Origin: Balanoglossus misakiensis | Taxonomy: Eukaryota; Animalia; Hemichordata | Length of the DNA stretch: 64,000 nucleotides | Assembly (NCBI GenBank): GCA_040954595.2 | Contig: CM082586.2 | Span: forward strand, 2,981,124 to 3,045,123 | Direction of reading: 5' to 3' | Shown here: piece by piece, positions 1 to 48,418 of the stretch | How the letters are laid out: each line of letters starts with the position of its first letter | Position numbering within the stretch: position 1 is the stretch's first letter | Translations under genes and position numbers: made by a program | Notes under the pieces: generated by a model | Told to the model about the DNA's origin: nothing | Database searches by the model: none | The model's input: the letters and a program-made list of their open reading frames with translations, nothing else

Positions 1-3000
1 GATTTTCAAAATTTGGTGATTTTCTGATAAAAAGCATGGGTTATAGCTCATGAAAATCATCCAGAAATGTCAATTTTTCGACTTCGCGGATTTTCAAAAT
101 TTGGCGATTTTTTGATTAAAACCATGGGTTATAGCTCATGAAAATCATCCAGAAATGTTAATTTTTCGACTTCGCGGATTTTCAAAATTTGGCGATTTTT
201 TGATAAAAAGCATGGGTTATAGCTCATGAAAATCATCCAGAAATGTCAATTTTTCGACTTCGCGGATTTTCAAAATTTGGTGATTTTTTGATAAAAACCA
301 TGGGTTATAGCTCATGAAAATCATCCAGAAATGTCAATTTTTCGACTTCGCGGATTTTCAAAATTTCTTCATTTTTTCGAAAAAACCATGGGTTATAGCT
401 CATGAAAATCATCCAGAAATGTCAATTTTTCGACTTCGCGGATTTTCAAAATTTGGTGATTTTTTGATAAAAACCATGGGTTATAGCTCATGAAAATCAT
501 CCAGAAATGTCAATTTTTCGACTTCGCGGATTTTCAAAATTTGGTGATTTTTTGATAAAAACCATGGGTTATAGCTCATGAAAATCATCCAGAAATGTCA
601 ATTTTTCGACTTCGCGGATTTTCAAAATTTGGTGATTTTTTGATAAAAACCATGGGTTATAGCTCATGAAAATCATCCAGAAATGTCAATTTTTCGACTT
701 CGCGGATTTTCAAAATTTGGTGATTTTTTGATAAAAAGCATGGGTTATAGCTCATGAAAATCATCCAGAAATGTCAATTTTTCGACTTCGCGGATTTTCA
801 AAATTTGGTGATTTTTTGATAAAAAGCATGGGTTATAGCTCATGAAAATCATCCAGAAATGTCAATTTTTCGACTTCGCGGATTTTCAAAATTTGGTGAT
901 TTTCTGATAAAAAGCATGGGTTATAGCTCATGAAAATCATCCAGAAATGTCAATTTTTCGACTTCGCGGATTTTCAAAATTTGGCGATTTTTTGATAAAA
1001 ACCATGGGTTATAGCTCATGAAAATCATCCAGAAATGTTAATTTTTCGACTTCGCGGATTTTCAAAATTTGGCGATTTTTTGATAAAAACCATGGGTTAT
1101 AGCTCATGAAAATCATCCAGAAATGTCAATTTTTCGACTTCGCGGATTTTCAAAATTTGGTGATTTTTTGATAAAAACCATGGGTTATAGCTCATGAAAA
1201 TCATCCAGAAATGTCAATTTTTCGACTTCGCGGATTTTCAAAATTTCTTCATTTTTTCGAAAAAACCATGGGTTATAGCTCATGAAAATCATCCAGAAAT
1301 GTCAATTTTTCGACTTCGCGGATTTTCAAAATTTGGTGATTTTTTGATAAAAACCATGGGTTATAGCTCATGAAAATCATCCAGAAATGTCAATTTTTCG
1401 ACTTCGCGGATTTTCAAAATTTGGTGATTTTTTGATAAAACTCATGGGTTATAGCTCATGAAAATCATCCAGAAATGTCAATTTTTCGACTTCGCGGATT
1501 TTCAAAATTTGGTGATTTTTTGATAAAAACCATGGGTTATAGCTCATGAAAATCATCCAGAAATGTCAATTTTTCGACTTCGCGGATTTTCAAAATTTGG
1601 TGATTTTTTGATAAAAAGCATGGGTTATAGCTCATGAAAATCATCCAGAAATGTCAATTTTTCGACTTCGCGGATTTTCAAAATTTGGTGATTTTTTGAT
1701 AAAAACCATGGGTTATAGCTCATGAAAATCATCCAGAAATGTCAATTTTTCGACTTCGCGGATTTTCAAAATTTGGTGATTTTTTGATAAAAACCATGGG
1801 TTATAGCTCATGAAAATCATCCAGAAATGTCAATTTTTCGACTTCGCGGATTTTCAAAATTTGGTGATTTTTTGATAAAAACCATTGGTTATAGCTCATG
1901 AAAATCATCCAGAAATGTCAATTTTTCGACTTCGCGGATTTTCAAAATTTGGTGATTTTTTGATAAAAACCATGGGTTATAGCTCATGAAAATCATCCAG
2001 AAATGTCAATTTTTCGACTTCGCGGATTTTCAAAATTTGGTGATTTTTTGATAAAAACCATGGGTTATAGCTCATGAAAATCATCCAGAAATGTCAATTT
2101 TTCGACTTCGCGGATTTTCAAAATTTGGTGATTTTTTGATAAAAACCATGGGTTATAGCTCATGAAAATCATCCAGAAATGTCAATTTTTCGACTTCGCG
2201 GATTTTCAAAATTTGGTGATTTTTTGATAAAAACCATGGGTTATAGCTCATGAAAATCATCCAGAAATGTCAATTTTTCGACTTCGCGGATTTTCAAAAT
2301 TTGGTGATTTTTTGATAAAAACCATGGGTTATAGCTCATGAAAATCATCCAGAAATGTCAATTTTTCGACTTCGCGGATTTTCAAAATTTGGTGATTTTT
2401 TGATAAAAACCATGGGTTATAGCTCATGAAAATCATCCAGAAATGTCAATTTTTCGACTTCGCGGATTTTCAAAATTTGGTGATTTTTTGATAAAAACCA
2501 TGGGTTATAGCTCATGAAAATCATCCAGAAATGTCAATTTTTCGACTTCGCGGATTTTCAAAATTTGGTGATTTTTTGATAAAAAGCATGGGTTATAGCT
2601 CATGAAAATCATCCAGAAATGTCAATTTTTCGACTTCGCGGATTTTCAAAATTTGGTGATTTTTTGATAAAACTCATGGGTTATAGCTCATGAAAATCAT
2701 CCAGAAATGTCAATTTTTCGACTTCGCGGATTTTCAAAATTTGGTGATTTTTTGATAAAACTCATGGGTTATAGCTCATGAAAATCATCCAGAAATGTCA
2801 ATTTTTCGACTTCGCGGATTTTCAAAATTTGGTGATTTTTTGATAAAAACCATGGGTTATAGCTCATGAAAATCATCCAGAAATGTCAATTTTTCGACTT
2901 CGCGGATTTTCAAAATTTGGTGATTTTTTGATAAAAACCATGGGTTATAGCTCATGAAAATCATCCAGAAATGTCAATTTTTCGACTTCGCGGATTTTCA

Positions 3001-3766
3001 AAATTTGGTGATTTTTTGATAAAAAGCATGGGTTATAGCTCATGAAAATCATCCAGAAATGTCAATTTTTCGACTTCGCGGATTTTCAAAATTTGGTGAT
3101 TTTTTGATAAAAACCATGGGTTATAGCTCATGAAAATCATCCAGAAATGTCAATTTTTCGACTTCGCGGATTTTCAAAATTTGGTGATTTTTTGATAAAA
3201 ACCATGGGTTATAGCTCATGAAAATCATCCAGAAATGTCAATTTTTCGACTTCGCGGATTTTCAAAATTTGGTGATTTTTTGATAAAAACCATGGGTTAT
3301 AGCTCATGAAAATCATCCAGAAATGTCAATTTTTCGACTTCGCGGATTTTCAAAATTTGGTGATTTTTTGATAAAAACCATGGGTTATAGCTCATGAAAA
3401 TCATCCAGAAATGTCAATTTTTCGACTTCGCGGATTTTCAAAATTTGGTGATTTTTTGATAAAAACCATGGGTTATAGCTCATGAAAATCATCCAGAAAT
3501 GACAATTTTTTTGACTTAGCGAATTTTCAAAATTTCTTCATTTTTTCGAAAAAACCATGGGTTATAGCTCATGAAAATCATCCAGAAATGACAATTTTTC
3601 GACTTTGCGAAATATCAAAATTTCTTAATTTTTTCGAAAAAACCATGGGTTATAGCTCATGAAAATCATCCAGAAATGACAATTTTTCGACTTTGCGAAT
3701 TTTCAAAATTTCTTTATTTTCTCAAAAAAATCATGGGTTACAGCTCATGAAAATCATTAAAAATTT
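1..3766. repeat. 88-bp tandem satellite array, about 43 monomers, truncated by the window start and degenerate at its right edge
   Basis: Monomer gattttcaaaatttggtgattttttgataaaaaccatgggttatagctcatgaaaatcatccagaaatgtcaatttttcgacttcgcg recurs at 1, 89, 441, 881, 1321 etc. (period 88). The last 3 copies are diverged. Confidence 0.99.
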
Positions 3767-3851
3767 GACGTGGCCAATACTTTGGCCAGGATTTCACGAG
3801 TGTAGAATTCTCTTTGAGGATCTCGCTCGGATCTGACGACACTGTTACCGG
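3767..3851 (-). repeat. 85-bp duplicated fragment of the last coding exon of the adjacent IFI44-like gene
   Basis: 3767-3851 matches 4182-4266 with 4 substitutions and abuts the satellite. Confidence 0.95.
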
Positions 3852-4129: not shown

Positions 4130-7100
4130 TTACGAAATAACACAGCTGCCCGTCTGCTTCGTTTCATCTTTGTACGACTTCGACGCGGCCAATACTTTGG
4201 CAAGGATTTCACGCGTGTAGAATTCTCTTTGAGGATCTCGCTCGGATCTGACGATACTGTTACCGGTGTGATCGTAGTTTGCAATCGGGAATATTTGGCT
4301 TCGATCGACCCCAATTTCATGGGCGATTCGCTTCCGTGCATCTTCTATTTCTTTTGGAGTCATTTCGTCGATGTGTGTCATCACTATAAACATCGGTATA
4401 GCGCGACCTATCAAATGAGACGTAAACATTAAAAGTTTAATTTTAGAAAACAACGCAAGAATTGAAGTAGACGCCAGTGACGTTTGAATAAATAACATTT
4501 ATGAAAGAAACATCGTGAATATGGTTCGTCATTTCGATGAAGCATATTATATGTAGGAAGACATGTTATAAGATAATATTTTCTTATAAATGGGCTCTAT
4601 ATTCCGTTTATAATTAACTACGCCCATCAGACAATTTGCAAGCCTTTATTCAACCTACCTGTTTTTGTCACAGCCTGTAAGAAGTCCGAATGCATGGTCT
4701 GAGTTCCCGCTCTTCCATTTTGTACGGCGATGACAGTCTGGATTTTTGCATGGTCTGTACTGAACCATCTGGTGGAATCTCCAATTTTAATATTTGGGGG
4801 TTCCTTACCGTTGATAATGTTCTCCATAGCCTTCTGGAGGTTCCCCTCATTTTCATAGGCCCTGACGGTGGCACCCGGCACATCCCATAAAGTGAATTCG
4901 CGCAAACCAAGGCAAATTTTATATGGGGTGTAAACGGGTGTGCCAGTCACTGGGCCGCCATACGTCGGAGCAACCGGGTGCATTTCAAGTGACTGGAAGC
5001 AAACCATATTTTGGGATATACTTTAATACAACTTTTTCTTTCATAAGTCTAGCGCCCTCACACAGCTACCATGAATGTGACATGAACGCAAAGCTAGGCC
5101 AATGGGGAAAATCCCTTGGCCGTGATGGGCCAACTTCCCAATTGAGTTCAATTTCATGATGGCCGCGTGAGGGCGCTAAAGTTATGAAAAAGGTGCCTTG
5201 TCCACCATTTCCGACTATGTATGAAAGTCAGTAATATTTAGTAATACACATATCTCATTCACGCAAAGCAAACTTTCGTCACCGTTGAATCCAAATATAT
5301 ACTATTGACAATTTTAGTGTTCATCAGCAAAGTTACCATTCCAAGAGAAAGGGTACGCACAAATAAGCTTTGGAACTAGGTTGAGAATCGAAAACAATTT
5401 TAAATTTCACAACTATCATGAGCGTGACACGACGAAAAATGCGAAATGTCAGAGGTTTTATCGCAAGCGACCGGCTAGACAAGATGGCGCCAAGCTTACC
5501 TTCATGAGAGTGTTGATAAAGGATGATTTGCCATGGGCAGCGCCTCCAATTAGAACTATGTTTTGACCACAACACATTTTTTTTATTTCGTCTGTAATTC
5601 AAAACACGACATGACTTCATTTCCAAGTCTGGTACATGTGATGTACTCCAACATAACCAAAGGGATGTTTGAGTTTGAGTACCCATTAAGAGGGTGTACA
5701 GAAAAAATTGAAAAAATGTAACATTACAACATATTTTGCACTTGCTAGAATTCTCCAAGTGACCATGGTTATTTCATTATCGACAGTCAAAAGTATCTTA
5801 CCCAAATTAGGAGAGCCGGGTACATAAAAGACAAGTTCTTTCTCAGCATATTCTGAGAGTTCATTCATTGTCGGAATTGGTGAGCTGATCCTTCCAGGGA
5901 TTTCAACTGGTTGATAGACGATAATGTCGTCATCTTCGGACAATTTGAAGGTACGCTGAATTTCTTCGGTCAGATGACATATTCTGTTAGATGTGCGGAG
6001 TTGTAATGGTCTCCTTCTCCGAGCTCCCACTTTCCCGACGTAGACGGTGATTTCTGAAAGATGTGGAAATGCTCATATATATAGAAAGGGGGTACGGGCG
6101 GGATAAAAAAAAAAAGCTCGACTGTATTGAATGAAATAAAGCTATGCAAATTAGCAGGGGGAGAGGATATGGGTCTTGTAATACAAGATTATTCATAAAA
6201 TACCGGGATTTATGTCCGAGTACAATGTACAGCGGCGGTATTTTTCCAAATTCCCTTCCGAAGTTTTTTTGTGAAAATTGTCCAAGTTGGCATTAGTTTC
6301 ACAAGGTTATTGAGGTTTGACATTCATTTCAATCAAACGTTCATTAGATGTTTGTGGGAAGTTTAGTGAAATACAATGCAGCAGATTTGGGTGCTGTAAT
6401 TACAAATGTCCACTGATTATACAACGAATTCTTTCTACTTTAAATAGGTTTTTGCTACCTAGGTGAATAATTAAAATCTCAATTGAGTCGACACAATGTC
6501 ACGATGGCCGTTTTTTGCCATGTTTTTAAGAAATGGAAGTCCATGGGGTAAAGTGATACTACGACAGCCACCATTGTCAGGTTATGTCAAGTCACTGCGC
6601 TGGCTAACGTCATGCCAGATAAAAGATATGCTAAAATGCTGGACATGATAGTGTAGGCTATATATTAACTGGGTGGCAGATGGTAACATACCGTTGCTTT
6701 CCGCCATTTCCGTGCTGCTACTGCTGCCGTCACGTGTCCGCTTTGCTTGCTTGTGGGCTGTTATTAAAATTCAGGATGTTAGAAATGTAAAGGACACACA
6801 GGTACACGGAAGAAATATTTTAGTACTTAGACTAGATTTCCACACAACGATATGTCCGTGGTTGTCGTTTTGGGGTAAAGAGTCCGAGGGGATCTCCCGA
6901 TATGCACTAGTACGCAGTCTGACTATAGAGAACTCAATTATTTTCACTTTCGTTTCTATTGTTCATACAACCTGATAAAATAGTCCCGATACTGCGAAAT
7001 TGCCATTGAATATGCAAATTAGATGCTCCTGTATACAATGTAGCTTACAGTACTGTGTGAAATCAACATCTTTAACATATTCCATAATCTTTGTTTGTAT

Positions 7101-8850
7101 TTTATGTATGCATTTGGCGTACTTATAATTCATTAGTGAGTGTAGTGTGATAATAAATGCACGTCAAAATGTTCTTGACCAGAGGTGACAAGTGAAAAAA
7201 CAGTTTAGCCTGGCCATTTGAAGTAAAACGTTGAAAGTTAGTTTTCAATCGCGATTCTGGTAAGTGGTATATTTGCTTGTAGGTCATTGTGCCGATTTCG
7301 CGAAACCGAAAGAATGAATCTAGCGGATCTGGGCTGAGTCATGACTTTGTCACAATCTATCTCTGCAGTCCTGTGGGTTGAACAAACACAGTCAACCTAC
7401 TTGCATATTTTCGTCGATATGGCGTGGGATATGTCGACGTGAAAGAACATTTGTAAGTAAACACAATATGCAAAGTGCTACACATCACAGTGACAGTACA
7501 CACACCTAGAAGTTGCTAGCTTTTTGTCGCCATTAACATCCACTTTCATCTTCCACGATACGATATATGAAACCTAACTTAAAGTCGAGATAAAAATCGT
7601 CGCCTTAATATTTGATATGGATCGTGGATGGACACAAAAGTCGTACTAACCAGAACAAGGTTGTGCTGTTCGCGTGAATGTACCACCTTCGGGTGAAAGG
7701 ACCCTTGATATCAAGGGTCGAATCTCGGGCTAGTCAAAGGTTGAGATTTCATGAGTTTAAAATATACCCGTACCCCAGTTGAGGTATAAGGTCATCTTTA
7801 ATTTACATATGTCTACATACATTGTCAAAATAGCGTGTCTAAGTCTTCGAAGCCATAGGCATATGGTGGCGCAACATTTTCGCATGTATGTATAACATAA
7901 ATTAAACAATTCTGTTTAATTAACTATCCGAAATACCGTTGTATTTACCTTCATATTCTTTTACTTCTTCTTTACATTGCTCATACTCAATTTCTGACAT
8001 TGTTACTTCCATGGTGATGTATTTTGCCTGAAGTTTCTCCAGCAGCTGCCCAGTGATAATTGCTTTCTGGAAAACTTGCTGTAACTCCCCACTTTTGTAC
8101 TGGCCCCATAGCTTTTCCAGCACCTCCGTTTTGCCACACCAAACCACACACTCGATGGATGAACGCCTGAACTCTTTTATAAGAGTCCCGACCCTTTCCA
8201 GATGGTCCTCAACCATTTGCAGGGCACCCTCTTGACTCAAGTCAACACTATCGTAGACTCTTCTCATAATATAATAGTATGTGCGTGTACTCTCATCCGC
8301 TGCCATGGGTTGGTCACCTACAACTTGAAAATCCTCCAATGCAGCAAGTACTGAAAGTTCGCCTGAAATGAAAATAAATCTTGTGTTTGATTGCTAAAGC
8401 CATTTTCGTATATCAAAGCATAGACAGGAGTATTTCAACCCAACTAACAGAAAGAAAATCAGTACAAATCTCCATCTAAGAACCAAATCTTGACTTATGA
8501 AAATCAGAAAATGGAAATTTCAAAGTTAACTTACATTGTTGTCTTCTCCCCCTCACGCCGGTTTCTTCCAGAAACTTAATGACCATTGTTTTGAGTGGCA
8601 TCCTCTTGATTGTTTCGAACAAATCCAGCAGCAAGTCCAAATTGTCATCGCGTATGTGACCCCTATCTTTGAGGTAATGAAAAAGCTCTGTTGCCGTTCC
8701 CACACTTTCAGTGTCCTGTATGTCCAGTTGCTGATCTCGTAACAAGTCCTTCATGGTGGCGACTTCTTCAAGGGACAGCTTTTGCGCCAATTCCACGAAT
8801 AATTTGTTTAATGGATTAATGTTGTCTGTGGGATCCGGAGCTTCAGCCAT
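4130..8850 (-). CDS. DED + TRADD-N-like + ubiquitin-like + IFI44-like GTPase with C-terminal CaaX (CVIS), about 583 aa, 7 coding exons
   Basis: Exons 8850-8535, 8362-7949, 6757-6692, 6053-5802, 5591-5500, 4992-4659, 4407-4130, all GT-AG and phase-compatible (1752 nt). ATG in strong Kozak context GCGGCCATGG. DED pattern LFVELAQKLSLEEV...ELFHYLKDRGHIRDDNLDLLLDLFETIKRMPL. TRADD-N-like SIECVVWC...LEKLWGQYKSGELQ...MSEIEYEQCK. GTPase motifs GGAAHGKS, LWDVPG, THID, ANY. Joining the DED half to the GTPase half is inferred. Confidence 0.8.
5039..5189. mobile_element. MITE-like element with about 37-bp imperfect terminal inverted repeats, intronic
   Basis: tttcataagtctagcgccctcacacagctaccatgaa (5039-5075) is near reverse-complementary to ttcatgatggccgcgtgagggcgctaaagttatgaaa (5153-5189). 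Confidence 0.65.
6941..6956 (-). promoter_or_regulatory. IRF-E/ISRE-like motif GAAACGAAAGTGAAAA, intronic
   Basis: Three GAAA cores on the minus strand, about 190 bp upstream of the 66-nt exon. Confidence 0.5.
7302..7312 (+). promoter_or_regulatory. ISRE-like motif GAAACCGAAAG, intronic
   Basis: Matches the GAAANNGAAA consensus. Confidence 0.4.
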
Positions 8851-10307
8851 GGCCGCAATTTTTGTTGCTGTTTTAACGTAAATCACAACTTCAGAGTTTA
8901 TTGCGAAACGAGGCCTGCGAGACAAAAAGGAAAATGTCACTTTGATGATCTAGATCATATAGTACACAACAAACAAAGTTACCCGGCCACTTTGCGCCGG
9001 CTTGAAAAACCATACCAGATACATATGCAAGGTATTATGTCTTATTATTATATTAGGTGAAATATGAAAAATAAAGATTTTAAACATATTTACTTCACTA
9101 CCGCAGCCGTTTCAATTCGATATCGCTATTACCTCCCAAAACCTCCCAAAGAGTACCAAACTTGTACAATCAAAAGTCAAAACGTTCCTGATTTTAAATT
9201 GCAAACATATTACTAAGTCAGCTTCAGTCACTGTGGGATGATCTAAATATGCTCTGGTGACTGTTTACAGGGTCACTAACTATGGACAGATTTATGGCGT
9301 CTTGTACTGTATTGCTAAGCCAGTATAGGGAAGTGGGGTTATACAGGTCAGACCTACACACATGTAAATAAGATTTGGCTTTTCTCTGTGTAAAGTTGGG
9401 CCAAAAGTCAACCACTGAAGATCATTGAGTACAGGTCTTTTCCAAACCGTAAATTTACTAATTTGGGTGAAAGAATTAATAGCTTCCAAACAAGGTATGT
9501 TGTCATATCGGCCAGCAGTGCCGCCATATTTATATCCCCAGGAAAATGAAAACACTGAGGAAATTAACTATGCAGAAGCTTATGGCACACTTTCCTGTTT
9601 AGTATATTGTTGCAGACATTTACTCAGTTGATTAATTGATGACAGTATGTGTTCTGTAAGCCTTGGGCTGGATTGTACTTGTATCTGTAAAACGTATATT
9701 ATTTCCTTCGAAGTCTACAATGTTGAAGTTGACACAGGATATACTTCTGAATACTCTGGTTCTTGTTTCACCTGTACACCTAATGCCTGCTGCTAATGTG
9801 TCTCAGAGTATAACGTGACTTATCATAATAATTGAAGTCTAAAATACCTTAAATCAAAGATTCTTTCTCTGATACACTCCGGACACAGCGGCGATGAATT
9901 TTGAGTTGCACAGCTGGTGAAAACGTTATAGTACTCAGGTATCAAAGTTCGACATTTGCATGTGAATGATCTCACGGGTTGACTACATGTACTTCGTTGT
10001 CCTTTGCTTGGTCGAGTCGCTGGCTTTCCTTTGCCCCCCCCCCCCCCAGACAGCACTGGAAGAGGTCAGGAATATAAATGATTCAAAAATTAGGATAACA
10101 AAGGTTAAGTGCATTATGGTAACGTACGTTAGTCCTAAGCAACAAACAAAAAATATGCAAACTATAAGAGTGAACAATATGGCGTCCACAGATGAGATAA
10201 AACTGTGTTGTCGAAATGTAATTTTGTTTTAGCTATAGGCCTATACATGTACTTCTTGAAGGTGCAATTAGTGGCTTGAAGAAAACATATAATACTTTCG
10301 ATACAGT

Positions 10308-10320
10308 CACTTTCACTTTC
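10308..10320 (-). promoter_or_regulatory. IRF1/2-type element GAAAGTGAAAGTG in the shared divergent promoter region
   Basis: cactttcactttc at 10308-10320, between the two divergent ATGs (8850 and 10661). Confidence 0.6.
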
Positions 10321-10660
10321 GTGTGCTACATATCAAACATTACACCACTATGTATGCGTTTAATTGCAGCTAAGCTTTTAATATAAATTTCAGCAAGCAA
10401 ACTTTTCTGGCTTGTTTATGAACGACTGGGACGAGAGGCTGATAATAACGGCTGTCAGAAAGCTTGTTTGAACGGCCCAATTAGTAAAATCACGAAAATA
10501 GTATTTTTAAAAAGGTGTGGGAGTACATGGGGATAATTCCTAGAACCAAGGTCAAAGGCTATTTTGCGCTTGCGCATTTCGCGTTTTCCCCGTCAGTCCA
10601 GAAACCGTGCAACAGTTAAAAATAGATCTCCAGGGATTCTTCACGTGACAAGCAATAGAA

Positions 10661-13135
10661 ATGTTAAAGTTTTGGGGAGCTTCAAGTTCTCAGCAACCGT
10701 CAGCTCAGGTCGAGGCTGGTGAACAGCGGGAAAATGCGAACGTGGACGAGACTATCAAAGTGTACGTGCGATATGCCCAGGGAGCTAAGAACCCAGTACC
10801 AATTGACTGTGCGAGAGAAGACACGGTGTACGAGCTTGCAGGCAAACTGAAAGTTAACGCCCACAAGTTCAAGCTAACAGACGATGACTTCGATGAATCC
10901 GAAGTCGATCTATACACAGTGGGAACGAACGACAAGAAGACAAATCTGCATCCCAGCGTTAAGATATCAACATTGATCGGTAGTAAAGTAGAATTTGACA
11001 CAGGCAGTAAGTACGTTACATGGTACCAGCGTCAGTACATGGGGTTGTTTATATATGGCAGAACCGGATCAGTATGAGTTTGTTTATTCTAGTATGCAAG
11101 TGACCTGGTTTCAGAGGAGTAATTCGTCCTTGGAAAGTAGTAAAAGATGAGCTCAACGCCAAGATCTTCATGAACTTGACATTTCTGTTCTTGGTGCGAT
11201 ATGAGATAGCAGCGCTTGACATTATCTTTCAGTTTCAACACTATTCGCAATAACGCTGTTCAGGTAAAGTCCTATGATGGCGACTGAAGGGACACCGGCG
11301 TGAATGCTTGGTATACCTGTTGTTTATTTACCGACGCGCATATAGTATTACTGAACGTTAATGAGTAACAGGGTTCATGCACGATGCTATAGTCGATGAA
11401 TTATAAAATAATATGTTATTTCTCATGTTTTCCCTAAAACGGGCACAGATGCGGCATTTTTCTATTTCCCGTTATTCTTGGCGTCAAAGTAATTGCTTAA
11501 ATATTCAATACATTTATTTCATTATCTGACAGATTTCGTCGTGTATGTCGGGCACATCAGCCAGACGAGCGAAGAAATGTTCAACTGTCGGGAGAAAAAC
11601 ACCGTGTACGACCTCATATGCAAATTAAGAGAACGACTTCACGAGTTCGGCTTGCCACCGGCTGACGTCGAGCGTGTTTGGTTGAACGAGGGCCGTTTGC
11701 AGATTTACAAAAAAGCCAAATTACCAGGCGGGGTGAATACACCACTAGTGCTCAGTCAACGCCTGGATGAAATGAAAGGCGAAACACTACTTTTCGACAT
11801 GATTTCAAGATCTGTTGACATAGGTGGGTATTGAGCAGAGGTTAACAGTCATTACCCATAATATTTGATTGTTTTTTTTTAGTATTTTGGTCTCGAGTAT
11901 TTAAATCTGTCTGTCTGTCTGTCCCACTCTCTCAGAATGTATTAGCAAGAAGTGCTGTGGGCAAAACATTATCTTTTTTGGTGGCCCATCTCACGGAAAG
12001 TCGTCTACGATCAATACAATTGTAAAGGTAAGTGGCCAACTTCACTTCTATTTACACCACATGCGTTTTTGATGACACATATTATGACCTTGCCAAGTAC
12101 AGAAGGAATGAACGTATCTTTTAATTGTCGCTTACTTACTTTACATTTAGTCAATGCAAGGCTTCCATCAGAATTTGGCGCAGACTTTCACCGCTGTTAT
12201 GGCCGGAACCACAGTTTACACGCCCTACAGGATCGACGTCAAGAGCAAAAGTTTTACACTCTGGGACGTTCCCGGCACTTCGCTGTCGAGCAAGATAAGT
12301 CGCCATGCAACCGACGGCAGGCGAGTCATCCAGAATATCCTGGACGGCAAGCTGCCGGCCCATAGTGCGATTGACGGTCCCTTCAGGAGCAGCGGTCTGG
12401 AGGCGGACAAGATTCACGCGGCGGTGTGTGTGCAAAAAGGAACTGCCGAACTCGAGCGATTGCATTCAATGGTGTTTGAAGCAACTCGTAGACACGGTAA
12501 GAATTCTTTCCTGTCTACTTTTCCTCGCATTAGAAACATTGAATAATTGATTGCGTAATTGTAGTCTGCCTTGTTATATCAACTGTCCATGGACATCAAC
12601 ACTTTCAGCGTGTTAATTAAAGAACTTTTATCATCCAATTAGCGCTCGTGTCATAAAAGTTTGGGCGTCTGTGATTGGTGAATATCGATCCCACATTCCT
12701 ATTGGCCAAGAGTGTGAATAAGTACACAACTGTCATTTTTCTACCCAAACAGGTCGAAGCATGCCGGTGTTCTTCATCATAACGCACCAAGATCAAATGG
12801 AGGACCATGAAGTAGAGGACAAAATCAACGAAGTGTCCGGGACTTTTGGGGTCGACAAAAGCGCCATATTCACGATAGCAAACTACGACCACACAACACT
12901 TTACAACGACGACCCGCAGAGAGACGCGCATGTGTTGTCCGCTCTCTGGCAGATGCTGTCCTGTGCGTACACCTACAAAACGAGGGGACGGGTCCAGATT
13001 GGTGAATCGGTTGGCCCGTATGACATCGAAGATAGGATAGAACAGACAGAACCAAGGACAGAACCAGCCCCTGCACCAGAACGCCCTCAACCACGGCCGG
13101 CGCGACACCGTGTTGAATTCTGTGTAATATCTTAA
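10661..13135 (+). CDS. Tandem ubiquitin-like domains + IFI44-like GTPase with C-terminal CaaX (CVIS), about 485 aa, 5 exons
   Basis: Exons 10661-11006, 11533-11823, 11936-12027, 12151-12496, 12753-13135 (1458 nt, phases consistent). G1 GGPSHGKSSTIN, G3 LWDVPG, DKIHAAVCV, G4 THQD, ANY...DPQRDAHVLSALWQML. This resembles the IFI44 C-terminal pattern (THVD...SNY...DP.KD..ILSALRRML). The two N-terminal exons share VYV...C....TVY(E/D)L..KL. Confidence 0.88.
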
Positions 13136-15815
13136 AGATATGTATAAATAATATGACCAAAAATTCGGACAAACCCTTCTTCTTGGAACTTGTAAATATC
13201 ATGAGCAATTTTTCGTTGCAATTAGCAAATTTATGAATAAATCGAATGATGTCGCCTTTACTGCCATGCTGTTACCTGTAGTGTTTATGCCTCATGCGAA
13301 TAGGTCACCTGATATTCGCCAGGGGGTTAATTGTGGTGTGCCCACTTTCAGTGAAAGCGTTGCGGCAACTTGATAGGCCCTACACAATCTATTATGATCC
13401 GTAGACAACAGTAGGCATCTACGGTATGAAAGTATCAGGCCTGTTGTTACCTTCAGTAGTTCAACATCTCAGTGGACTCGATAATAAAGAAAGTGAAAAT
13501 GGCTAAAAAAGACAAACAAACAGACAAGCAAACAAACTAACAGACCGTAAAAATATGAGGCATGATCTGCATTGGTGAATTTATGTCATATGCAAATAAG
13601 CTATGTCAAGGCCGCGCTCTCATTGGAGTTGAACAAGACGCTTTACCGTGAGCGGAGCAGCAGGCCAAAAGACAGACTCATTGCAGATAACATGCTGTAT
13701 ATGTGACACAGAATGTAAGTTTTGTCTTGTAACATAGACTGGCTTTTAAAACAGGAAACGCAAATATCTATGAGCAAATATAGCCGGAATATAACCATGG
13801 CGTCAGCAACACATTGTTCATTGATTACAAAGGTATACTCTACCCGGAACCGTAAACCTTTACATTTAATTCTCAGCGTCCTGCACCTTTCCCGAATTAT
13901 ATTATAAGATGGTCTTAATTTTGTATATTTATGTTATTCATTTATCTCCCGTGGGTTTTACAACTTAGACGAGGTAAATTTAAAGGTGAACCTATGGTCA
14001 AGGACACAGGTGCTTTACCGATACGAAGTGCGCGCTGCTGGGTTTGTCTGTGGCCAGTGTACCATACCTACATGTATTTTCAACTGGATACCCATTGTCG
14101 ATGCTCACAAAAGAAAATGCATTAAGCGCTCCAAATCCGATATAGGCCTCGGTATTTTTTTTTACTCTAGCGTGGTTTTCTAGATCACAGATTACTTACG
14201 TTCAGACGTGACTTTTTACGCGTACCTATATGCAGTATTACATTTTTGAATACAAGTTCGAAAATTCATTTGTGACTGATTAAAAGGACACGATCACCTA
14301 TTCAAATTTAAGTATCTCACTTTACTTTGACACAAACGGTGGAGTGAACAACTCATGATGGCAAACCAGTTAAAACGGGTATGCACGGGCACAAATATCG
14401 CGCAGTGCATGAACATTGGACCCAGTCGAGTGGCCAATATACCTGTACAGCTCTTCTACGGGAGTGCGTCCCCCGGGGCGTTTTACGGTCCGTGACTTTG
14501 AGAAATTGCTTTACGGCCACACGGCCGTACAAACCGGAATTCTAAGTATTTTTGCCCTACCTTGACCTAAGAAAAGGGACATAAACGGTGACCTAGTATA
14601 AAACGACTGGTTACTGAATGATCTGAGGTATAACCCAGGTTGACAGTGCCGTTTGGCCCTGCCCATATTTTTTCATCGCAACTTGCAGTTTGGTGCAGTG
14701 TGGTAAGTAACCGATATAATATATTCAAAGACTTTGCAAAATATTTAATGGGAGGAATGTCACTAAAACTATATAATGTATTAAGCTGGATTTTTGGCTT
14801 CGATGGCGGACAGTAAGTTCTAACCTGCTGTACGTTTACTTCACTGAAGTTGTCGGTCAAGTACAGGCTTGCGTCTGCGGCAAGCGAGACCAGGTTTACG
14901 CCGGCGAATTAAGAATGACCAGCCAATGACCGGAGTGATTTGACTTCGCGGAATCTGAAATATCACGGACCACTCCAGGGGAATTATTTTTTGGTATGGC
15001 AACACAATACATCGTCACCTTTAACCCACTGGTGTGTTATCACTTTGTGGAACGCACGTGATTGAGTATCATTTACTCCGTCGCTAACAAGAGTGCATGG
15101 CGACTTCGACAAACTCTGGCATGGCAACATTTAGAATTTAACGGCAGTATAGGCTTTGATGCAAGGGAGGTAACGCCAGTATTCTCGCGGAAGTTCTGAG
15201 GAGGCCAAGGAGGCCAGTGGTTCCTCGCGCGTGCGCAGAGGCCACCAACATACCAAAACAGGAGCTTGGTATGTTCGAGTTGTACGTCCTTTTACCAGGT
15301 CGTTGTTTTGTCGAGTAAAGGTGTCCCAATATAATTATATTTATATAGGACAGGCCTACTATAAATAGTTTCTCGCTCTACTTAAATGTCAAGGACCTAA
15401 CAGAGTTGACCTCAGTGTGTTTTGGCTGTGGGCAATGTCACCTGGACGACTGGGTCACATACCGAACTTAGCTCACCAGTATATCAATAAACTATTCCGC
15501 TGACTGTATTTGGTGCTTTTGGGAAAGAGGGAGGTTGCCCTAGACTTGTCATTCAGGTTGACAGACGAGGCCAATCAACGGCAGGTGTTAGGTTCGGGTG
15601 AAATAAATGATATCTATGACCACACGGCATTCCTTGGTTGCGCTCTGCATAGGTGTGTGGGGCGGGGGGACCTGGCTGTATTTTGAAGTCAGTACATGTA
15701 CTAGTATAGCAGAGTCTAGTACCCGACGACAAATACCCCCACTGTGATTTTAAAACGCCGGCCCTTACAAATTTAATTGTGTTCTCCCGTGTTCACCTTC
15801 TTGCAGAAAGCCACG

Positions 15816-17819
15816 ATGTCGAAGGCTTACGTGTGCACACTGAGCGAGGATTTGCAGGAGAGGGCTAGAGTGGAACTTAACGAAGACCCCGAGACACGAA
15901 TGGCGAAGGTGGAGCAGCTGCGAAGTATGTTCAAGACCAGACCGGACATAATCTTCAGACAGGACGATTTCTTCCTGCTGCAGTTCCTGAGGAACAAGAA
16001 ATTCGACGTCCAGAAAGCCTTCAAGAAGATCGTGCATTACTACGAGGTGAGGAGGGACTGCACGGACATTTTCGGGACATTCCTACCGCTTGATTACAAG
16101 TACATTTTCGACGCGGAGATGGAGATGGTCTGCCCCGGAAGAGACGCCGAAGGGCGGAAGGTTATTATCGCTAGAAATTGTGAGTATAACCACCGAGGAT
16201 GCAACTGAAGCATCGCCTTGTTTTTTTATTTGGCCCAATCAAACCGTTGAATAACATGGGCGATAGAAAGAAGGGAGTCATTTTTGGCTTAGAAAGTAAT
16301 ACCAGGTGACTAAAACTCCATAAACGCCACTAAACAACTTTGTAAACAAACATGCACCTTAACAGGAATGCAAGCTACGCGAATTGGTATTCATGGACGG
16401 AATTTATTGCGTCCAATTTTGGCGTGATGAATTGCCTTGTACCTGGCTTGCATGGTTCAGTTGCAGTGAATGGTTTCAAAGGCGTACAAACCTCGCCTTA
16501 TTTATCACCTCGGCCAATAGGAAACGCGTTCGCAGCTACATGTATATCGTGTCTATGTACGAATGTATCGATCCTTCCATCCATCTAGTCGACCAGCCAG
16601 GGAGACAGACAGACAGACGGACAGAGAGACACATCTATATATCCACCAACCACTAATCCATACACTGATCAACCCAACCCCACCAATCCATCGATCCGTG
16701 GATCCGTCCGCCTATATGTCTGCTTGTCTATCTGTATGACTAAACTGACGAACTGCCCGAAGACAACTGCTAGTCATACAGCTAGACCAATAAATAGTAC
16801 ATCCGCTAGTCCGTCGGTCAGTCACAGTCAGTCAGTCAGAGTGAGTCCGTCAGTAGTCTGATAGGATAATAACTGAACCCTACTTATTTGTATCTCAGCT
16901 AGATGGGATGTGGACAGGTATGACGTAGCCGACGGGTTCAGAGGATCGCTGATGATGATGGAGACGATAATACAGGAAGAGGAATCGCAGATCAACGGAG
17001 TGGTTCTCATCGCTGACTATGAGGGCTTCACCATGAAGCACTTCACCAAAACCAAGCCGTCACTGATGAAAAAGATGACTGATATTTACGAAGTGAGTTT
17101 TTGTCCCCCTTTTTGCCAGTGAGGGCGCAGACTGTTTGCTCAGACCGTCATACACAAGGCATCGTGTCATTCTGATTCCATCTTTGTTGTTTTCTTCAGA
17201 ACGCCTTGCCGATACGTATTAAAGCTATTCACTTTGTTAACCAGCCGGAGATCTTCACTAAAGTGTACGCAATTATGAAGTCATTTATTAGTGAAAAGTT
17301 AACTAGCAGGGTAAGTAAATACAATGTAATGGTTTAGTAGACTTTAGTTTTGTCCCTTCTTTTCACCCAATTTGCTTCTTTCCCGATCTCCGACACAGAC
17401 TATGGCCGCCGCCATCTTGTCTGTTGTTACGACAGCACACTTTGCATTGACTGTACATGTATACACATTTGAATAAACCAGAGTCTCTGGTTTGGCACAT
17501 GCGCATAAGACGATCTCTGCCATTTAAAGTTCCTTTCACTAAATTGTGTAGTTTTTCTTTTCAGTTGCACTTCCACGGTGAAGAGTATGGTAGTCTACAT
17601 AAGTACGTACCGTCTGCAATGCTCCCGGCCGACCTGGGCGGACAGCTGCCCGAGTTTCAGAACAAAGAGTGGCGGGAAAAACTTCTGGCGTCCAACCCCG
17701 TGTTTGAACGCAATAACAGGTTCGGGTTCCCGCAGGCGACGAGGTCCGTAGGAGAGACTGGCGTGGCGAGCGAACTGAATTATGGGATGACGGGGTCATT
17801 CAAGAGACTTGACATTTGA
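15816..17819 (+). CDS. CRAL-TRIO (Sec14) domain protein, alpha-tocopherol transfer protein-like / clavesin-like
   Basis: Exons 15816-16179, 16899-17092, 17200-17310, 17565-17819. Motifs DDFFLLQFLRNKKFDV, ESQINGVVLIAD, LPIRIKAIHFVNQP, LPADLGGQL. Confidence 0.93.
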
Positions 17820-20180: not shown

Positions 20181-21251
20181 ATGAACAGCACGGTTTCCAG
20201 TAACGATAGCCGCACTGCGCCTGAGATTGTACTGCCGGTGTCATGGGCGACCGACCTGTCCGGTGCTCTTGAGATCGTCCTGGCGTTGGGAGCAATCTTC
20301 GGCAATACTCTGTTCATCTTGATAGTTTTCTTCAAGAAAAAACTGAGGTCGTCCATGAATATATTCTTGGTCAACCTGAGCGTGACGGACATCATTGCAG
20401 CAATCTTCGTCTCTCTCCCAACGGCAGATTCCTATCTGCACCGAAAGTGGCGCTTGGGAGCCAAATTCTGTCTGGTACACAATGTCCTCAACCCGGTACT
20501 GATTTCAGTTTCGCTCTGGCTGACAGCATTCATCTCCATCAATCGGTACATCTTCATCGTCCACAACGAGAAGTACCGTCGACTTACCAACAAAGTTACG
20601 CTGGCACTTGCATTTGTATTTGCCTGGTGTTTTCCGATAGCGAATGAGTACGCCGTGTTTCAAGACACATCTCGATCAAGATACTCACCACCATCTTTTC
20701 GTTGTCAGATGCCCGGTACCCAAGTTCTCTTTGTACTCCTGTTCTACACCCCTACGATTATTGTACCTTTGGTGTACCTTCCGATCATCGTCTACGTGAT
20801 GAAGAGCAGGCGTCGCGTTCAGAGCCACCAGTCGCAAAGTGCCGGTGCAAATGGTCCATCTTCACAGGAAGTCCGTATGCTGCTGGTCATTGTCGGCGTC
20901 TTCTTCATGGTCATGCTCGGTTACCTACCATTCGTCATCCTGATCAACTGTTACCAGATCTACGGCCAAAGACCACCACCAGAGGCTATGATCTTGATGT
21001 ACCCCTTGATTCACGTCGGAGGCGTCATGAACCCCTTCCTGTACGGCATCAACAACAGGCACTTCAAAGAAGCGTACAAAGAGCTACTGACGGGAAAACT
21101 ATTCCGAAAACGCGGACGTGCAAACCAGGTGGCACAAGCACCGAATTCAAGCAATCGTCCAACTGACATGAGCCTGGACACCAGCAGTAAAAACCCAAGG
21201 ATGACCCAATCAACGGTGAACGAACAGGTGGGCGGGCCAAGCACTGTCTAA
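20181..21251 (+). CDS. Intronless rhodopsin-class GPCR (melatonin-receptor/moody/Tre1-like group), ligand unknown
   Basis: Seven hydrophobic segments. GN in TM1, NLSVTD in TM2, NRY in place of DRY, NPFLY in TM7, N-terminal NxS/T sites. Confidence 0.93.
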   Translation: MNSTVSSNDSRTAPEIVLPVSWATDLSGALEIVLALGAIFGNTLFILIVFFKKKLRSSMNIFLVNLSVTDIIAAIFVSLPTADSYLHRKWRLGAKFCLVHNVLNPVLISVSLWLTAFISINRYIFIVHNEKYRRLTNKVTLALAFVFAWCFPIANEYAVFQDTSRSRYSPPSFRCQMPGTQVLFVLLFYTPTIIVPLVYLPIIVYVMKSRRRVQSHQSQSAGANGPSSQEVRMLLVIVGVFFMVMLGYLPFVILINCYQIYGQRPPPEAMILMYPLIHVGGVMNPFLYGINNRHFKEAYKELLTGKLFRKRGRANQVAQAPNSSNRPTDMSLDTSSKNPRMTQSTVNEQVGGPSTV

Positions 21252-23786: not shown

Positions 23787-26700
23787 TTAGGCTTTTGGAA
23801 ACTTCTTGACGTATTCCAGACGGGATGGGTGCTCATCGTTTGGACGGCAGTGAGGAGTCCACACTGGCTCTCCGACGAACATGCGTTTGGCCTTGATGTA
23901 ATCCTGCAATTGGAAGTTTATATACACTCATGTAAATATGTATACCACGCAAAATGACCTGCTGGCTGTGACTCTGTTTTGTGCAGAAATGTCTTAAAAT
24001 GACAAGCTGATTAGCTGGATCTTCTTTGAATTATAAATGTGACTAAAATTTTCATAGTAGAGAATATATTCTTTACACAATTTCCAATGATTGCTGACAG
24101 GTTTTCATTGTTCGTTTCATTGTGGACGACACAAAACAGTACAGATGATATGTGCAATTTTCGCCACACCCATGCATGCCTCACAAGTTACTTTTAATTA
24201 CCCGGTACATCAAACATTGACATACCTTGGTATCCAAAGTGAATCTATGATAGATCCCCGCTGGCAAAATAATCATGTCTCCCTTGGCGACCTCGATGCG
24301 GATCCATTTGTCACTTCTGCTGCGGATATCAAAATATCCACTGCCGTCTGTGATGAATCGGATCTCTTCATCAGCATGCAAATGTTCTGTGAAGAACCGC
24401 TTCAGCTGTAAAACAAAATTTAAAAAATGATTGACTGATCGTCAAAAATCGTTTTGTGAAGTCATCAACTGACAAAAACATTGTTCAGATGAACGCATCT
24501 GCCTGCAGCTCAAAGATGACACAGCTGACGTTTCGCAAAATGTCTATTAGTGAATGGAAGCGCTTGATTAACTAAAGTTAGCTAGTTAATAAGAAGCTGC
24601 AAGTATAGACACCTGTCTACTTTGCACAATTTCCTGATCGAGTCACCTTTCATCAGTGTCTTTGGAAATTGCATTATTTAATACCTTCTTTTATCTTTAT
24701 AAAGACAGTTCCTCAGATATTTATTATTGGAACAGACGTCGGCCTGAAGGGTCAGCATGTTTGATTATTCTCAGAGGAAATCTAATTTTCTGTTTTTAAC
24801 ATCTTCTTTCAACTGCAAATTTTTTATATTCCTCAAGCTGTCAAATTCATTTTTTTATCATTTATGGTTTCCGCTACACTGCATGCAATGTCAAGAAGAT
24901 ACTGCGTTCCTCAGCAGACAGCACAAAATGACTGGAAATGTTCAGGTGACAATTATTTTGTCGTTTACATCTGGGACATGAGTCACTCACAAGCCAGAGG
25001 GGAAATAGTCTCTATGCTCCTTTTATGACCATCTGTGTAAATGAACGGTTTATTGAGAAGATAGGCTGAACATTCTTACCGTGTTATCGTAATCAGGTAG
25101 TTTCTCTGGAGTGCATGTGATCTCATCCTCATAAGTATAACCGCGATCACTTCGGATCTTATCTAGAGTGCCTTCCTCCTTCCAATTGTCAGCATCAAGC
25201 TGGAATAAAAAAAATAATAGTTTTCGTATTTTGTCTAGTCAACGGAGTATAAAAACAATAGTTTTCATATTTTGTCTGGTCAACTGAGAATAAAAACAAG
25301 TTTAGAAATATTTTGTCTGGTGAACTATAGTGTTTGTATTTTTCTAGTCAACTGAGAATGTAGTTTTCTCAACAACTGAATTTTTTAGTTAACCAAATAT
25401 AACTAGGCTAAATTTTTAGTTCTTTTAATATCATCAAATGCCCATAATCCATATCTGTACACGTGTTGGTGCCGTCTGGATGCGGCTATATTGATTTTTA
25501 TATTGGACCCCACTGATGCGGGTCTATCGATCTCCATAATAAAGAAATGGCCGAAAATAATTATCCTCATGTAGGCTGACGATTTGCATATGAATAGTGG
25601 TAAATAATGTTGAGTTATGGGGATTTTAAATCCACGTTTCGATTTCGATTTCGAAATTTTTGAAAGTAAAATCGTGAAAATCCGTTTCTATGGCAACCAA
25701 TGCGTCCATTGCGGCAGCTGTTATACGTCTAGCCTTGGCCTCTATCTCTAAGGACTACTTGTTTGCTACGTGACGTTTGTGACCTAACAGTTTTGCATGT
25801 CTGATAAATTCGATAGACCATGGTGTAGTGACCTCTTGAAGGTCATGAAATTGAAAGCACAGGAAGTCATGTCAGAGAGTTGTTTAAGGTCGAAGGTCGT
25901 AAAAAAGACGAACCACGCCAGTGTTTGGATAACCTTTCCAGAAGCTTCACTACAGAGCTTTGTGTGTTTGAAGAAAAAATGAATTCAACCAATCACTTTT
26001 ATTCTGGAAAAAAGTAACTTTTTTTCACATATCCTCTGATCCCCCCCCCCCCAACCCCCTCGTTTTTCCTGATCGCTGCCTAAATGCACATTCGAGTGTA
26101 TCATGTGGCATACTGGGCTCACGTGTGGACGGACCTATTGTCTGAGGTCACATAGACTGCATGTTCCCGCCGCCATTAATCCATCCACAAGACTATGTTT
26201 GTGAACACACATTTAAGCTACTTTATTGGCGATTCAATATTTATTCTATTACAAATAAATTTGCGCGTTTATAATATAGCTGAAGGATTGATATAAACAG
26301 ACTGTAAAGAACAACCAATAGTTTAATAGTCAATCTATTCAGTGTCGTACGTGCAGTGAAAAAAATAACACGTGCGCAGTCCGTTGTATGAGTGCCCTTG
26401 TGTCGATTTTCGTGTTTATTGCAACTTCAAAACTTTGTTGCAACTACATGTAAATTTCTTTCATAGTACAAACTTTGTTGCACTGAAACGTTTGTTCTCT
26501 GAAATGGACACGCCGATTGTAGCGTTCGGCGAATTTCCGGCGTTTTGCGACATGTGCGGGGTACATGTACATGTCTATACTCACTGGGGAAAATGTCAGT
26601 TAAAAATCACAAATATGAGCGGAGTTAATGAGTAAAAAACATCGACACACTCGTGGGCTAGTATTTCAAAACGCTGGCAGCGTCCCTCGTGGTGATGCGA

Positions 26701-28473: not shown

Positions 28474-32298
<3,825 letters not shown>

Positions 32299-39525: not shown

Positions 39526-48418
<8,893 letters not shown>

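Follow-up and report, generated by a model that had tools for sequence, protein, structure and literature searches.

The window analysed here is a stretch of 64,000 nucleotides from the acorn worm Balanoglossus misakiensis (assembly GCA_040954595.2, contig CM082586.2, positions 2,981,124 to 3,045,123 of the forward strand). It contains two divergently transcribed genes, called gene A and gene B below, which encode GTPases with ubiquitin-like (Ubl) domains and a C-terminal CaaX box. On sequence grounds, A and B are old paralogues of an acorn-worm family. This real and apparently undescribed hemichordate family consists of Ubl-bearing, often prenylatable GTPases that are related to IFI44 and combined with interchangeable death-fold or TIR modules. 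Each ingredient has a precedent (the IFI44 domain, the CaaX box in the style of the GBPs, and fusions of dyads of a death effector domain (DED) and a TRADD-N domain); the combination was not found in print. We give about an even chance to the reading that A and B are cell-autonomous immune GTPases similar to the GBPs, induced by IRF and NF-kappaB and farnesylated, and that A gained a DED-TRADD-N cassette linking it to caspase signalling.

The exon models of both genes were computed from splice signals and represent predicted gene structures (Table 1). Gene A lies on the minus strand and has seven coding exons (583 amino acids), and gene B lies on the plus strand and has five (485 amino acids). 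All ten introns have GT-AG borders, and both reading frames are open up to one terminal stop. The two ATGs are 1,811 nt apart. The proteins share 33% identity over 329 columns (E 2e-55). Their P-loop exons are both 92 nt long with phases 1/0, the following intron is in phase 1 in both genes, and the intron phases match throughout the GTPase. The G1 (GxxxHGKS), G3 (DVPG) and G4 (THxD) motifs and a downstream ANY motif are intact in both proteins, and both proteins end in CVIS. Hence, the splice models confirmed what the first-pass annotation had described, namely two divergent paralogues 1.8 kb apart with a common GTPase exon layout, intact G1, G3 and G4 motifs and identical C-termini. All four codons of CVIS differ at the third position, which implies that the match does not stem from recent copying; on this ground, we ruled out that recent gene conversion produced the identical CVIS. 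We likewise ruled out that A and B arose by recent tandem duplication, given their 33% identity and the separate subclades described below, each of which has Ptychodera and Glandiceps members. Within the window, A and B were the sole family members found by tblastn.

At the 5' side of the DED exon of gene A, a strong splice acceptor was found at position 8915, and the 21 codons from there to the ATG are open in phase 1. This indicates that A has at least one further 5' exon, which is possibly coding. From 8915 towards gene B, only weak donors were detected (scores up to 3.0).

A word-based search with the G3 exon of gene B returned two relatives among 126 candidates, P0001 from Ptychodera flava (78%, ending in CAIS) and P0002 from Glandiceps talaboti (65%, ending in CLVL). 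The same search with the G3 exon of gene A returned none among 107 candidates; as it also missed P0008, this null result is weak evidence. We built a family profile from P0001, P0002 and the GTPase exons of A, and searched it against 1.84 billion representatives; labels of the type P0001 denote the proteins that it matched. In total, 111 proteins matched at E<=0.001, and 18 matched at E<=1e-30. The origin was looked up for 18 of the 23 closest proteins (P0001-P0023), with P0015, P0017, P0018, P0021 and P0023, as well as the fragment P0044, outside this set. They are without exception uncharacterised RefSeq proteins (P. flava, 13; G. talaboti, five), and their clusters contain three further sequences, namely two G. 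talaboti copies that are nearly identical and one P. flava protein. The family has at least 13 members in P. flava and at least seven in G. talaboti. One contig holds eight of the 13 P. flava proteins, and one contig holds all seven G. talaboti proteins.

We calculated a quick tree of 101 domains, which included five outgroup domains and omitted 14 cluster duplicates and rows covering fewer than 165 profile positions. The family formed a clade of 22 rows with a support of 98 (Shimodaira-Hasegawa-like approximate likelihood ratio test, SH-aLRT). Gene B grouped with P0001 and P0002 (98). Gene A grouped with P0008 (92), inside a CaaX-ended subclade with P0009, P0013 and the fragments P0017 and P0019 (91), in which the proteins have one Ubl domain where they are complete. 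The subclades of A and B each hold both Ptychodera and Glandiceps members, which implies that the split between A and B is old.

The GTPase domain of the family is homologous to that of IFI44 over its whole length. Comparison with TLDc-bearing proteins by hhalign gave 99.8% (E 4.6e-29) over 207 columns, i.e., the whole domain, and a second comparison gave 99.9% over 210 columns for IFI44, versus 151 columns for AIG1-type and 69 for IIGP proteins. Reciprocally, a TLDc-IFI44 profile covered A and B end to end (positions 5-240 of 244; 46.7 and 61.8 bits) and matched AIG1/IIGP-type proteins at the P-loop only (18-23 bits); the IFI44-like comparison set came from the family profile's own matches, which favours the IFI44 result somewhat. 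The earlier assignment to IFI44-like GTPases is supported by this whole-length homology. The next matches after the family were also IFI44-like: P0036 carries this name in Lingula, and a cluster member of P0026 carries it in a herring-like fish. An 'interferon-induced protein 44-like' cluster ranked second in the ESM Atlas (score 0.89), which we treat as a lead only.

The acorn-worm family shares with IFI44 and IFI44L the complete GTPase domain, the G4 motif T(H/K)xD and the xNY motif that follows it. In contrast, IFI44 and IFI44L contain a TLDc domain, whereas the acorn-worm family has none and instead has N-terminal Ubl repeats, a CaaX box in part of its members, and death-fold or TIR fusions. 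Scores with the IFI44 profile were 39-65 bits for the acorn-worm family, compared to 201-222 bits for fish IFI44-like proteins. In Pfam, TLDc was carried by seven distant matches, and no TLD match was found in any exon of A or B or in any close relative. In the quick tree the family clade lay outside the TLDc-containing group, and a long-branched AIG1-type outgroup adjoined it at 87 (unstarred). Judged by these profiles and the tree, the family is related to IFI44 but does not appear to be an IFI44 orthologue group.

The predicted structure of P0013, calculated from 51 sequences, had a predicted local distance difference test score (pLDDT) of 92.9 and a predicted template modelling score (pTM) of 0.91, and ended with one helix after the G domain. 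Its top solved folds in Foldseek were GIMAP2, Toc34 and GIMAP7. In VIA-align many GTPases were nearly tied, with Z-scores from 15.7 to 13 (mitofusin 15.7, IF2 15.0, Era-like 14.8), and the septins were nearest by profile. GIMAP/AIG1, Toc34 and septin-like proteins are near folds, yet their sequence similarity to the family is mostly confined to the P-loop region, with identities of 14-16%. The match of an AIG1-type profile to A and B was limited to positions 6-89 of 211, and Pfam AIG1 stayed under its cut-off. NCBIfam gave only sub-threshold GTPase matches, and a PDB sequence search with a two-sequence profile gave nothing significant. The Pfam families GBP and GBP_C matched neither the exons of A and B nor P0001, P0002, P0008, P0009 and P0013. 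No solved structure named IFI44 was present among the structural and profile matches listed.

The Ubl exons of A and B had no significant match in Pfam. A family Ubl profile, made from the last Ubl of 14 proteins outside the subclade of A, was run on 132 proteins. It detected two copies in B, P0001 and P0002, three copies in P0004, P0006, P0007 and P0011, and one copy in gene A (E 0.0015 among the 132 proteins), P0008, P0009 and P0013, while distant relatives in this set had zero matches. Two or three Ubl domains are the family norm, members without a CaaX box included. The Ubl of gene A is 47% identical to that of P0008. Residues 131-229 of P0001, its second Ubl, matched beta-grasp folds (best Z 9.5, rmsd (root mean square deviation) 2.5, 81 aligned; 28 chains with Z>=8) in a model with a pLDDT of about 55 in this region; this model came from a two-sequence alignment (mean pLDDT 36) and served for the Ubl region only. 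The N-terminal domain in the model of P0013 has the order beta-beta-alpha-beta-beta. Hence, the beta-grasp-like exon that had been proposed in front of the GTPase is supported by the fold of its orthologues and by the Ubl profile in both genes, and the second Ubl that had been seen in one partner was found in B. A weak Pfam match to the Crinkler N-terminal domain (E 0.12 in B, 0.004 in P0007) was read as beta-grasp resemblance only.

A cysteine at position -4 was present in nine of 21 family proteins, all of them CaaX-like, versus six of 88 distant matches. The cysteine was kept in orthologues despite other aaX residues (CAIS, CLVL, CTVI), in support of the prenylatable CaaX box claimed in the first-pass annotation, which we regard as a predicted membrane anchor. 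The 114-aa family fragment P0044 also ends in CVIS. Among the distant IFI44-like single-domain proteins P0042, P0045, P0106 and P0025, we observed the ends CILL, CTQM and CKIQ, and one protein that starts with Met-Gly. These termini are a hint that lipid anchors may have arisen elsewhere in the superfamily too.

Two P. flava proteins of the family carry other signalling modules. P0020 (XP_070533933) has a RIG-I-type CARD_2 domain (64 bits), followed by a Ubl and a truncated G domain, and P0022 (XP_070551313) has TIR and SAM domains followed by the GTPase. Their predicted architectures indicate that these are independent fusions of signalling modules. IFI44-like domains were also fused to VWA, SH3, Ig, F5/8 type C and HEPN domains in P0029, P0031, P0027, P0065, P0077 and P0096; the predicted domain orders show wide domain shuffling around the IFI44-like GTPase.

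DED-TRADD-N dyads are described as a constant N-terminal part combined with variable immune domains in sessile marine animals, including hemichordates (PMC8195603, Kaur et al. 2021). Hemichordates are among the dyad-expanding lineages, and low-complexity linkers join the dyads to C-terminal partners that include AIG, GBP, AP and dynamin-like GTPases (PMC8195603). Gene A likewise has an N-terminal DED, followed in the predicted splice form by a borderline TRADD-N-like domain and a low-complexity linker, whereas its C-terminal part consists of a Ubl, an IFI44-related GTPase and a CaaX box. The term IFI44 was absent from the accessible text and the architecture rows listed in PMC8195603, where the label GTPase-AIG could hide one, and no GTPase was present among the Saccoglossus dyad rows listed in its supplement 4 (30 of 60 places).

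CaaX prenylation targets GBP1, GBP2 and GBP5 to membranes, and fusions of Gbp genes with DEDs occur in amphioxus (PMC6400534). We consider the GBPs the best working analogy for A and B: they likewise combine a C-terminal CaaX box with a GTPase that in A and B is likely inducible, and a DED fusion exists in a deuterostome invertebrate (PMC6400534). They differ in that they belong to another GTPase family and that the acorn-worm proteins have no long helical domain; in A, the CaaX box follows a few residues after the G domain. In the literature searched, with most subscription journals outside its scope, no description of a Ubl-IFI44-CaaX family was found, and IFI44 was not mentioned in the accessible parts of a hemichordate genome paper (PMC11175523) and an amphioxus pangenome paper (PMC12373286). 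The earlier claim of an undescribed system appears to hold for the family, but its theme has more precedent than was claimed, since DED-TRADD-N/GTPase (PMC8195603) and DED-GBP (PMC6400534) fusions are in print.

Candidate regulatory elements were found at both genes. The pattern GAAA[CG][CT]GAAA, which was chosen after the sites were seen, occurred at seven sites in the window outside the satellite described below, of which five were located in 4130-13635 (16% of the sequence; binomial p 0.0015). In simulations, 0.15 sites were expected in this interval and none of 1000 runs reached five. Five equal windows elsewhere contained 1, 0, 1, 0 and 0 sites, and six control cores gave 0-1. The elements at 10309-10320 and 6941-6958 have a 12-mer in common. 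Invertebrate IRFs with conserved GAAA-contacting residues exist (PMC7819612). From the motifs in intron 2, an inducible promoter inside gene A is predicted. About 55 nt upstream of the element in intron 2 that resembles an interferon-stimulated response element (ISRE), at 7012-7019, lies ATGCAAAT, which we take to be an octamer-like motif. Outside the locus, a GAAATC repeat at 25631-25652 gives overlapping GAAANNGAAA matches and is probably a simple repeat.

The IRF-type elements, together with the CARD and TIR-SAM fusions of other family members, make an immune role likely. The mechanism that we favour starts from the gene structure, the family membership and the Ubl, GTPase and CaaX anatomy shown above. 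As far as the motifs can tell, infection would activate IRF and NF-kappaB, which would induce B via the intergenic element and a short form of A, starting at ATG 6707, via the element in intron 2. Serine-ended CaaX boxes are farnesylated; by this established chemistry, the predicted modification would hold the proteins on endomembranes or pathogen-containing compartments. GIMAPs, Toc34 and septins show GTP-dependent dimerisation, and with a similar fold, GTP binding could lead to dimers or oligomers of the G domain, with the rigidly packed Ubl as a putative protein-binding surface. The long form of A, in which the phase-1 DED and TRADD-N exons are spliced to exon 3, would join these assemblies, cluster DEDs and recruit FADD/caspase-8-like proteins. 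B may assemble together with A, but it would then be one of several participating family members and not an obligatory partner.

Several observations weigh against this mechanism. The CaaX box is missing in 12 of 21 family proteins, which implies that a lipid anchor is not universal in the family, and the helical domain that drives coat formation by GBPs is lacking. Apart from the choice of the IRF pattern after the fact, three of the five IRF sites at the locus (7302, 11227 and 13489) are not next to a start, and kappaB matches are not enriched window-wide (6 versus 3.4 expected; this count was reached in 17 of 100 shuffles). The expression of an amphioxus gene labelled IFI44 decreased after poly(I:C), in a table row that repeats the identifier of another gene (PMC5752451), and for human IFI44, a role as a negative regulator that dampens antiviral signalling has been reported (PMC6712396). 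The first-pass annotation had assigned DED and TRADD-N-like domains to one partner. The DED in exon 1 of A was verified (Pfam PF01335, 50.9 bits versus a cut-off of 35.9), whereas TRADD-like_N in exon 2 proved borderline and under its cut-off (PF20694, 22.0 bits versus 23.7; E 1.4e-4). Furthermore, Pfam detected no DED or TRADD-N among the 111 matches of the family profile, although the second of the scans was run at E<=1e-7 and would miss a weak TRADD-N. The three closest full-length relatives of A (P0008, P0009 and P0013) lack both domains, which suggests that the death module is a recent addition, possibly confined to the long isoform. From this distribution, the DED-TRADD-N cassette is likely a recent graft onto gene A.

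The DED, TRADD-N, linker and Ubl exons of gene A all end in phase 1, and its model is least certain at the predicted junction between the DED/TRADD-N exons and those of the GTPase. From the in-frame ATG 6707 in exon 3, a short form of 323 amino acids (Ubl-GTPase-CaaX) is predicted. Gene A proper could consist of this form, with its own inducible promoter, and the DED and TRADD-N exons could be a separate upstream gene of about 250 amino acids that ends at about 7920, so that the fusion would be an artefact of the gene model. The short form aligns residue 1 to residue 1 with the 325-aa G. talaboti protein P0013 and is 46% identical to P0008, which suggests that the ancestral A-type gene looked like Ubl-GTPase-CaaX with its own promoter. 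P0008, P0009 and P0013 all start at or shortly before their single Ubl, and the ISRE-like and kappaB-like sites lie 180-250 nt upstream of ATG 6707. The frame of exon 2, read past its donor, reaches a stop at about 7920 (open reading frame 7920-8393), with ATTAAA at 7915 and 7797. However, ATTAAA occurs seven times on the minus strand in 7 kb, and the read-through tail is intron-like (GC content 0.31). The donor of exon 2 is located exactly at the end of the domain, in phase 1, and is the best donor upstream of exon 3 (score 5.2; the three weaker donors score 2.4-3.8). Acceptor features are present at exon 3, with a branch-point-like site and a rise in GC content from 0.34 to 0.60, and splice-site scoring found no usable donor, i.e., none of 1.5 or higher, between the ISRE-like element and exon 3. 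Moreover, the published dyad catalogue mostly has a further domain after the dyad (accessible part of PMC8195603), and a fusion to a death fold also appears in the annotation of another family member. Two separate genes thus seem unlikely to us, and the fused long form of A, as predicted from the splice signals, is quite probable (about three chances in four). A word-based search with the TRADD-N exon of A returned none of 643 candidates, which is weak evidence.

Three further explanations concern the function of the two genes. It is highly improbable that A and B are housekeeping membrane GTPases unrelated to immunity: the fold search does return many generic GTPases at similar scores and Pfam gives only matches at the level of MMR_HSR1, but the nearest full-domain relatives are IFI44-like, and the family is multi-copy, narrow in range, equipped with immune fusions and situated among IRF-type motifs. 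A better case can be made for inducible feedback dampeners similar to human IFI44, in which case the long form of A, tethered to the membrane, would act as a decoy and sequester DED proteins and TRAF-like adaptors instead of triggering death. The negative regulation reported for human IFI44 and the decrease of the amphioxus gene leave room for such a dampening role, the layout of DED and TRADD-N is that of DEDD2, a negative regulator acting with cFLIP (PMC8195603), and IRF and kappaB elements suit feedback genes equally. Yet the lineage-specific expansion, the variable number of Ubl domains and the swapping of CARD, TIR and DED fit effectors or sensors in an arms race better than a conserved brake, and A and B have no TLDc domain; we consider dampening improbable. 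We assign a similarly small chance to the dedicated sensor/executor pair of the first-pass annotation. In that arrangement, A and B would resemble head-to-head plant NLRs, co-transcribed from a common IRF element and pre-assembled on the membrane, with the extra Ubl of B as bait for pathogen enzymes and the DED of A as death output. It accords with the divergent orientation around a perfect IRF element (IRF-E), the identical predicted anchors, the absence of other family members from the 64-kb window, a fold class that includes dimerising GTPases (GIMAP, Toc34), and an outer Ubl of B that diverges faster than its GTPase (60% versus 80% identity to P0001). However, gene A has a Ubl of its own, multiple Ubl domains are normal for the family even without a CaaX box, the relatives of A have no death module, and both GTPases are intact without any sign of a degenerate sensor. 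P0008, the nearest annotated P. flava relative of A, is on a contig of length 47,311,355 and not on that of the B orthologue P0001 (40,314,384 long), and in G. talaboti the A-type and B-type genes share a contig with other, multi-Ubl members, which fits cluster remnants. The head-to-head arrangement may be the remnant of an ancestral cluster. The size of the family, the missing DED/TRADD-N in the closest relatives of A and the different contigs of P0008 and P0001 weigh against a dedicated pair, and a bait Ubl on one partner only was not borne out, as A and B both have Ubl domains, like most members of the family.

Paired plant NLRs with integrated decoys include RPS4/RRS1, RGA4/RGA5 and Pik. 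They are likewise head-to-head paralogues with unequal accessory domains, whereas A and B have no STAND ATPase or LRR, the candidate bait domain is on both proteins, and the linkage appears not conserved. NB-ARC, NACHT and LRR gave no Pfam match in the exons of A and B or in the relatives scanned. A bolder version of the mechanism, which we think has a slim chance, is that acorn worms built a caspase-recruiting membrane platform similar to the GBPs from the IFI44 fold. IRF-induced, farnesylated Ubl-GTPases would hetero-oligomerise, Ubl repeats would bait ubiquitin-directed enzymes of pathogens, a promoter switch in A would alternate between a long form able to trigger death and a short form unable to do so, and B would be a co-regulated sensor. 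If true, such a system would be the first GTPase-based paired immune receptor, and the IFI44 domain would then appear to be an ancient oligomerising immune switch.

IFI44 serves widely as an interferon marker, its biochemistry is poorly known, and it has been stated to have no homology to GTPases (PMC6712396). In the acorn worms, a well-modelled IFI44-related G domain (pLDDT 93) with intact motifs is recombined with CaaX, Ubl, DED, CARD and TIR in a deuterostome without interferons. This recombination suggests that the IFI44-related domain may act as a GTP-switched scaffold for membrane immune signalling. The acorn-worm proteins are small and testable, and they add an apparently undescribed lineage-specific family to hemichordate immunity. 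Gene A, with its two predicted promoters, offers a simple test case for a death module grafted onto an existing inducible gene.

Table 1. Predicted exons of genes A and B and candidate regulatory elements, with positions in the 64,000-nt window.
Feature	Position	Strand	Basis
A exon 1, DED	8535..8850	-	Pfam DED 50.9 bits; exon model
A exon 2, TRADD-N-like domain, phase 1-1	7949..8362	-	PF20694 22.0 bits
A exon 3, low-complexity linker, phase 1-1, in-frame ATG 6707 in good context	6692..6757	-	exon model
A exon 4, single ubiquitin-like (beta-grasp) domain, phase 1-1	5802..6053	-	family Ubl profile E 0.0015
A exon 5 (92 nt), G1 P-loop	5500..5591	-	exon model, motif
A exon 6, G2 and G3 region	4659..4992	-	exon model, motif
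A exon 7, G4, ANY motif, CVIS CaaX box, stop	4130..4407	-	exon model, motif
B exon 1, first ubiquitin-like domain	10661..11006	+	exon model, Ubl profile
B exon 2, second ubiquitin-like domain, phase 1-1	11533..11823	+	Ubl profile; orthologous domain has beta-grasp fold
B exon 3 (92 nt), G1 P-loop	11936..12027	+	exon model, motif
B exon 4, G2 and G3 region	12151..12496	+	exon model, motif
B exon 5, G4, ANY motif, proline-rich tail, CVIS CaaX box, stop	12753..13135	+	exon model, motif
ISRE/IRF-E-like element, three GAAA units, in A intron 2; candidate internal inducible promoter	6941..6958	-	motif; function inferred
Palindromic NF-kappaB-like site, about 45 nt downstream of the ISRE-like element	6888..6898	.	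motif
Perfect IRF-E match between the genes, 340 nt from B ATG and 1.46 kb from A ATG	10309..10320	-	motif; function inferred
kappaB-like 11-mer	10530		motif

At the side of gene A, positions 1-3757 are occupied by a tandem satellite with a period of 88 bp (42.7 copies, 97% matches), which extends from the edge of the window to about 370 nt from the stop of A. Further family members could be located beyond this satellite. An 88-bp copy (94% identity) of part of the last exon of A (4179-4266) is present at 3764-3851 in the same orientation; it abuts the satellite and has the length of the satellite period. This copy is possibly the remnant of a neighbouring copy or a local duplication.

The other genes in the window look ordinary and are located at 15816-17819, 20181-21251, 32089-35132, 41470-47410, 50972-51454 and 56009-58521. 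Pfam identified a CRAL-TRIO protein and a G-protein-coupled receptor of the rhodopsin family among these neighbours. From the text of their open reading frames, the others are presumably a major facilitator superfamily transporter, a WDR35/IFT121-like protein, a mitochondrial carrier and an exostosin-like protein.

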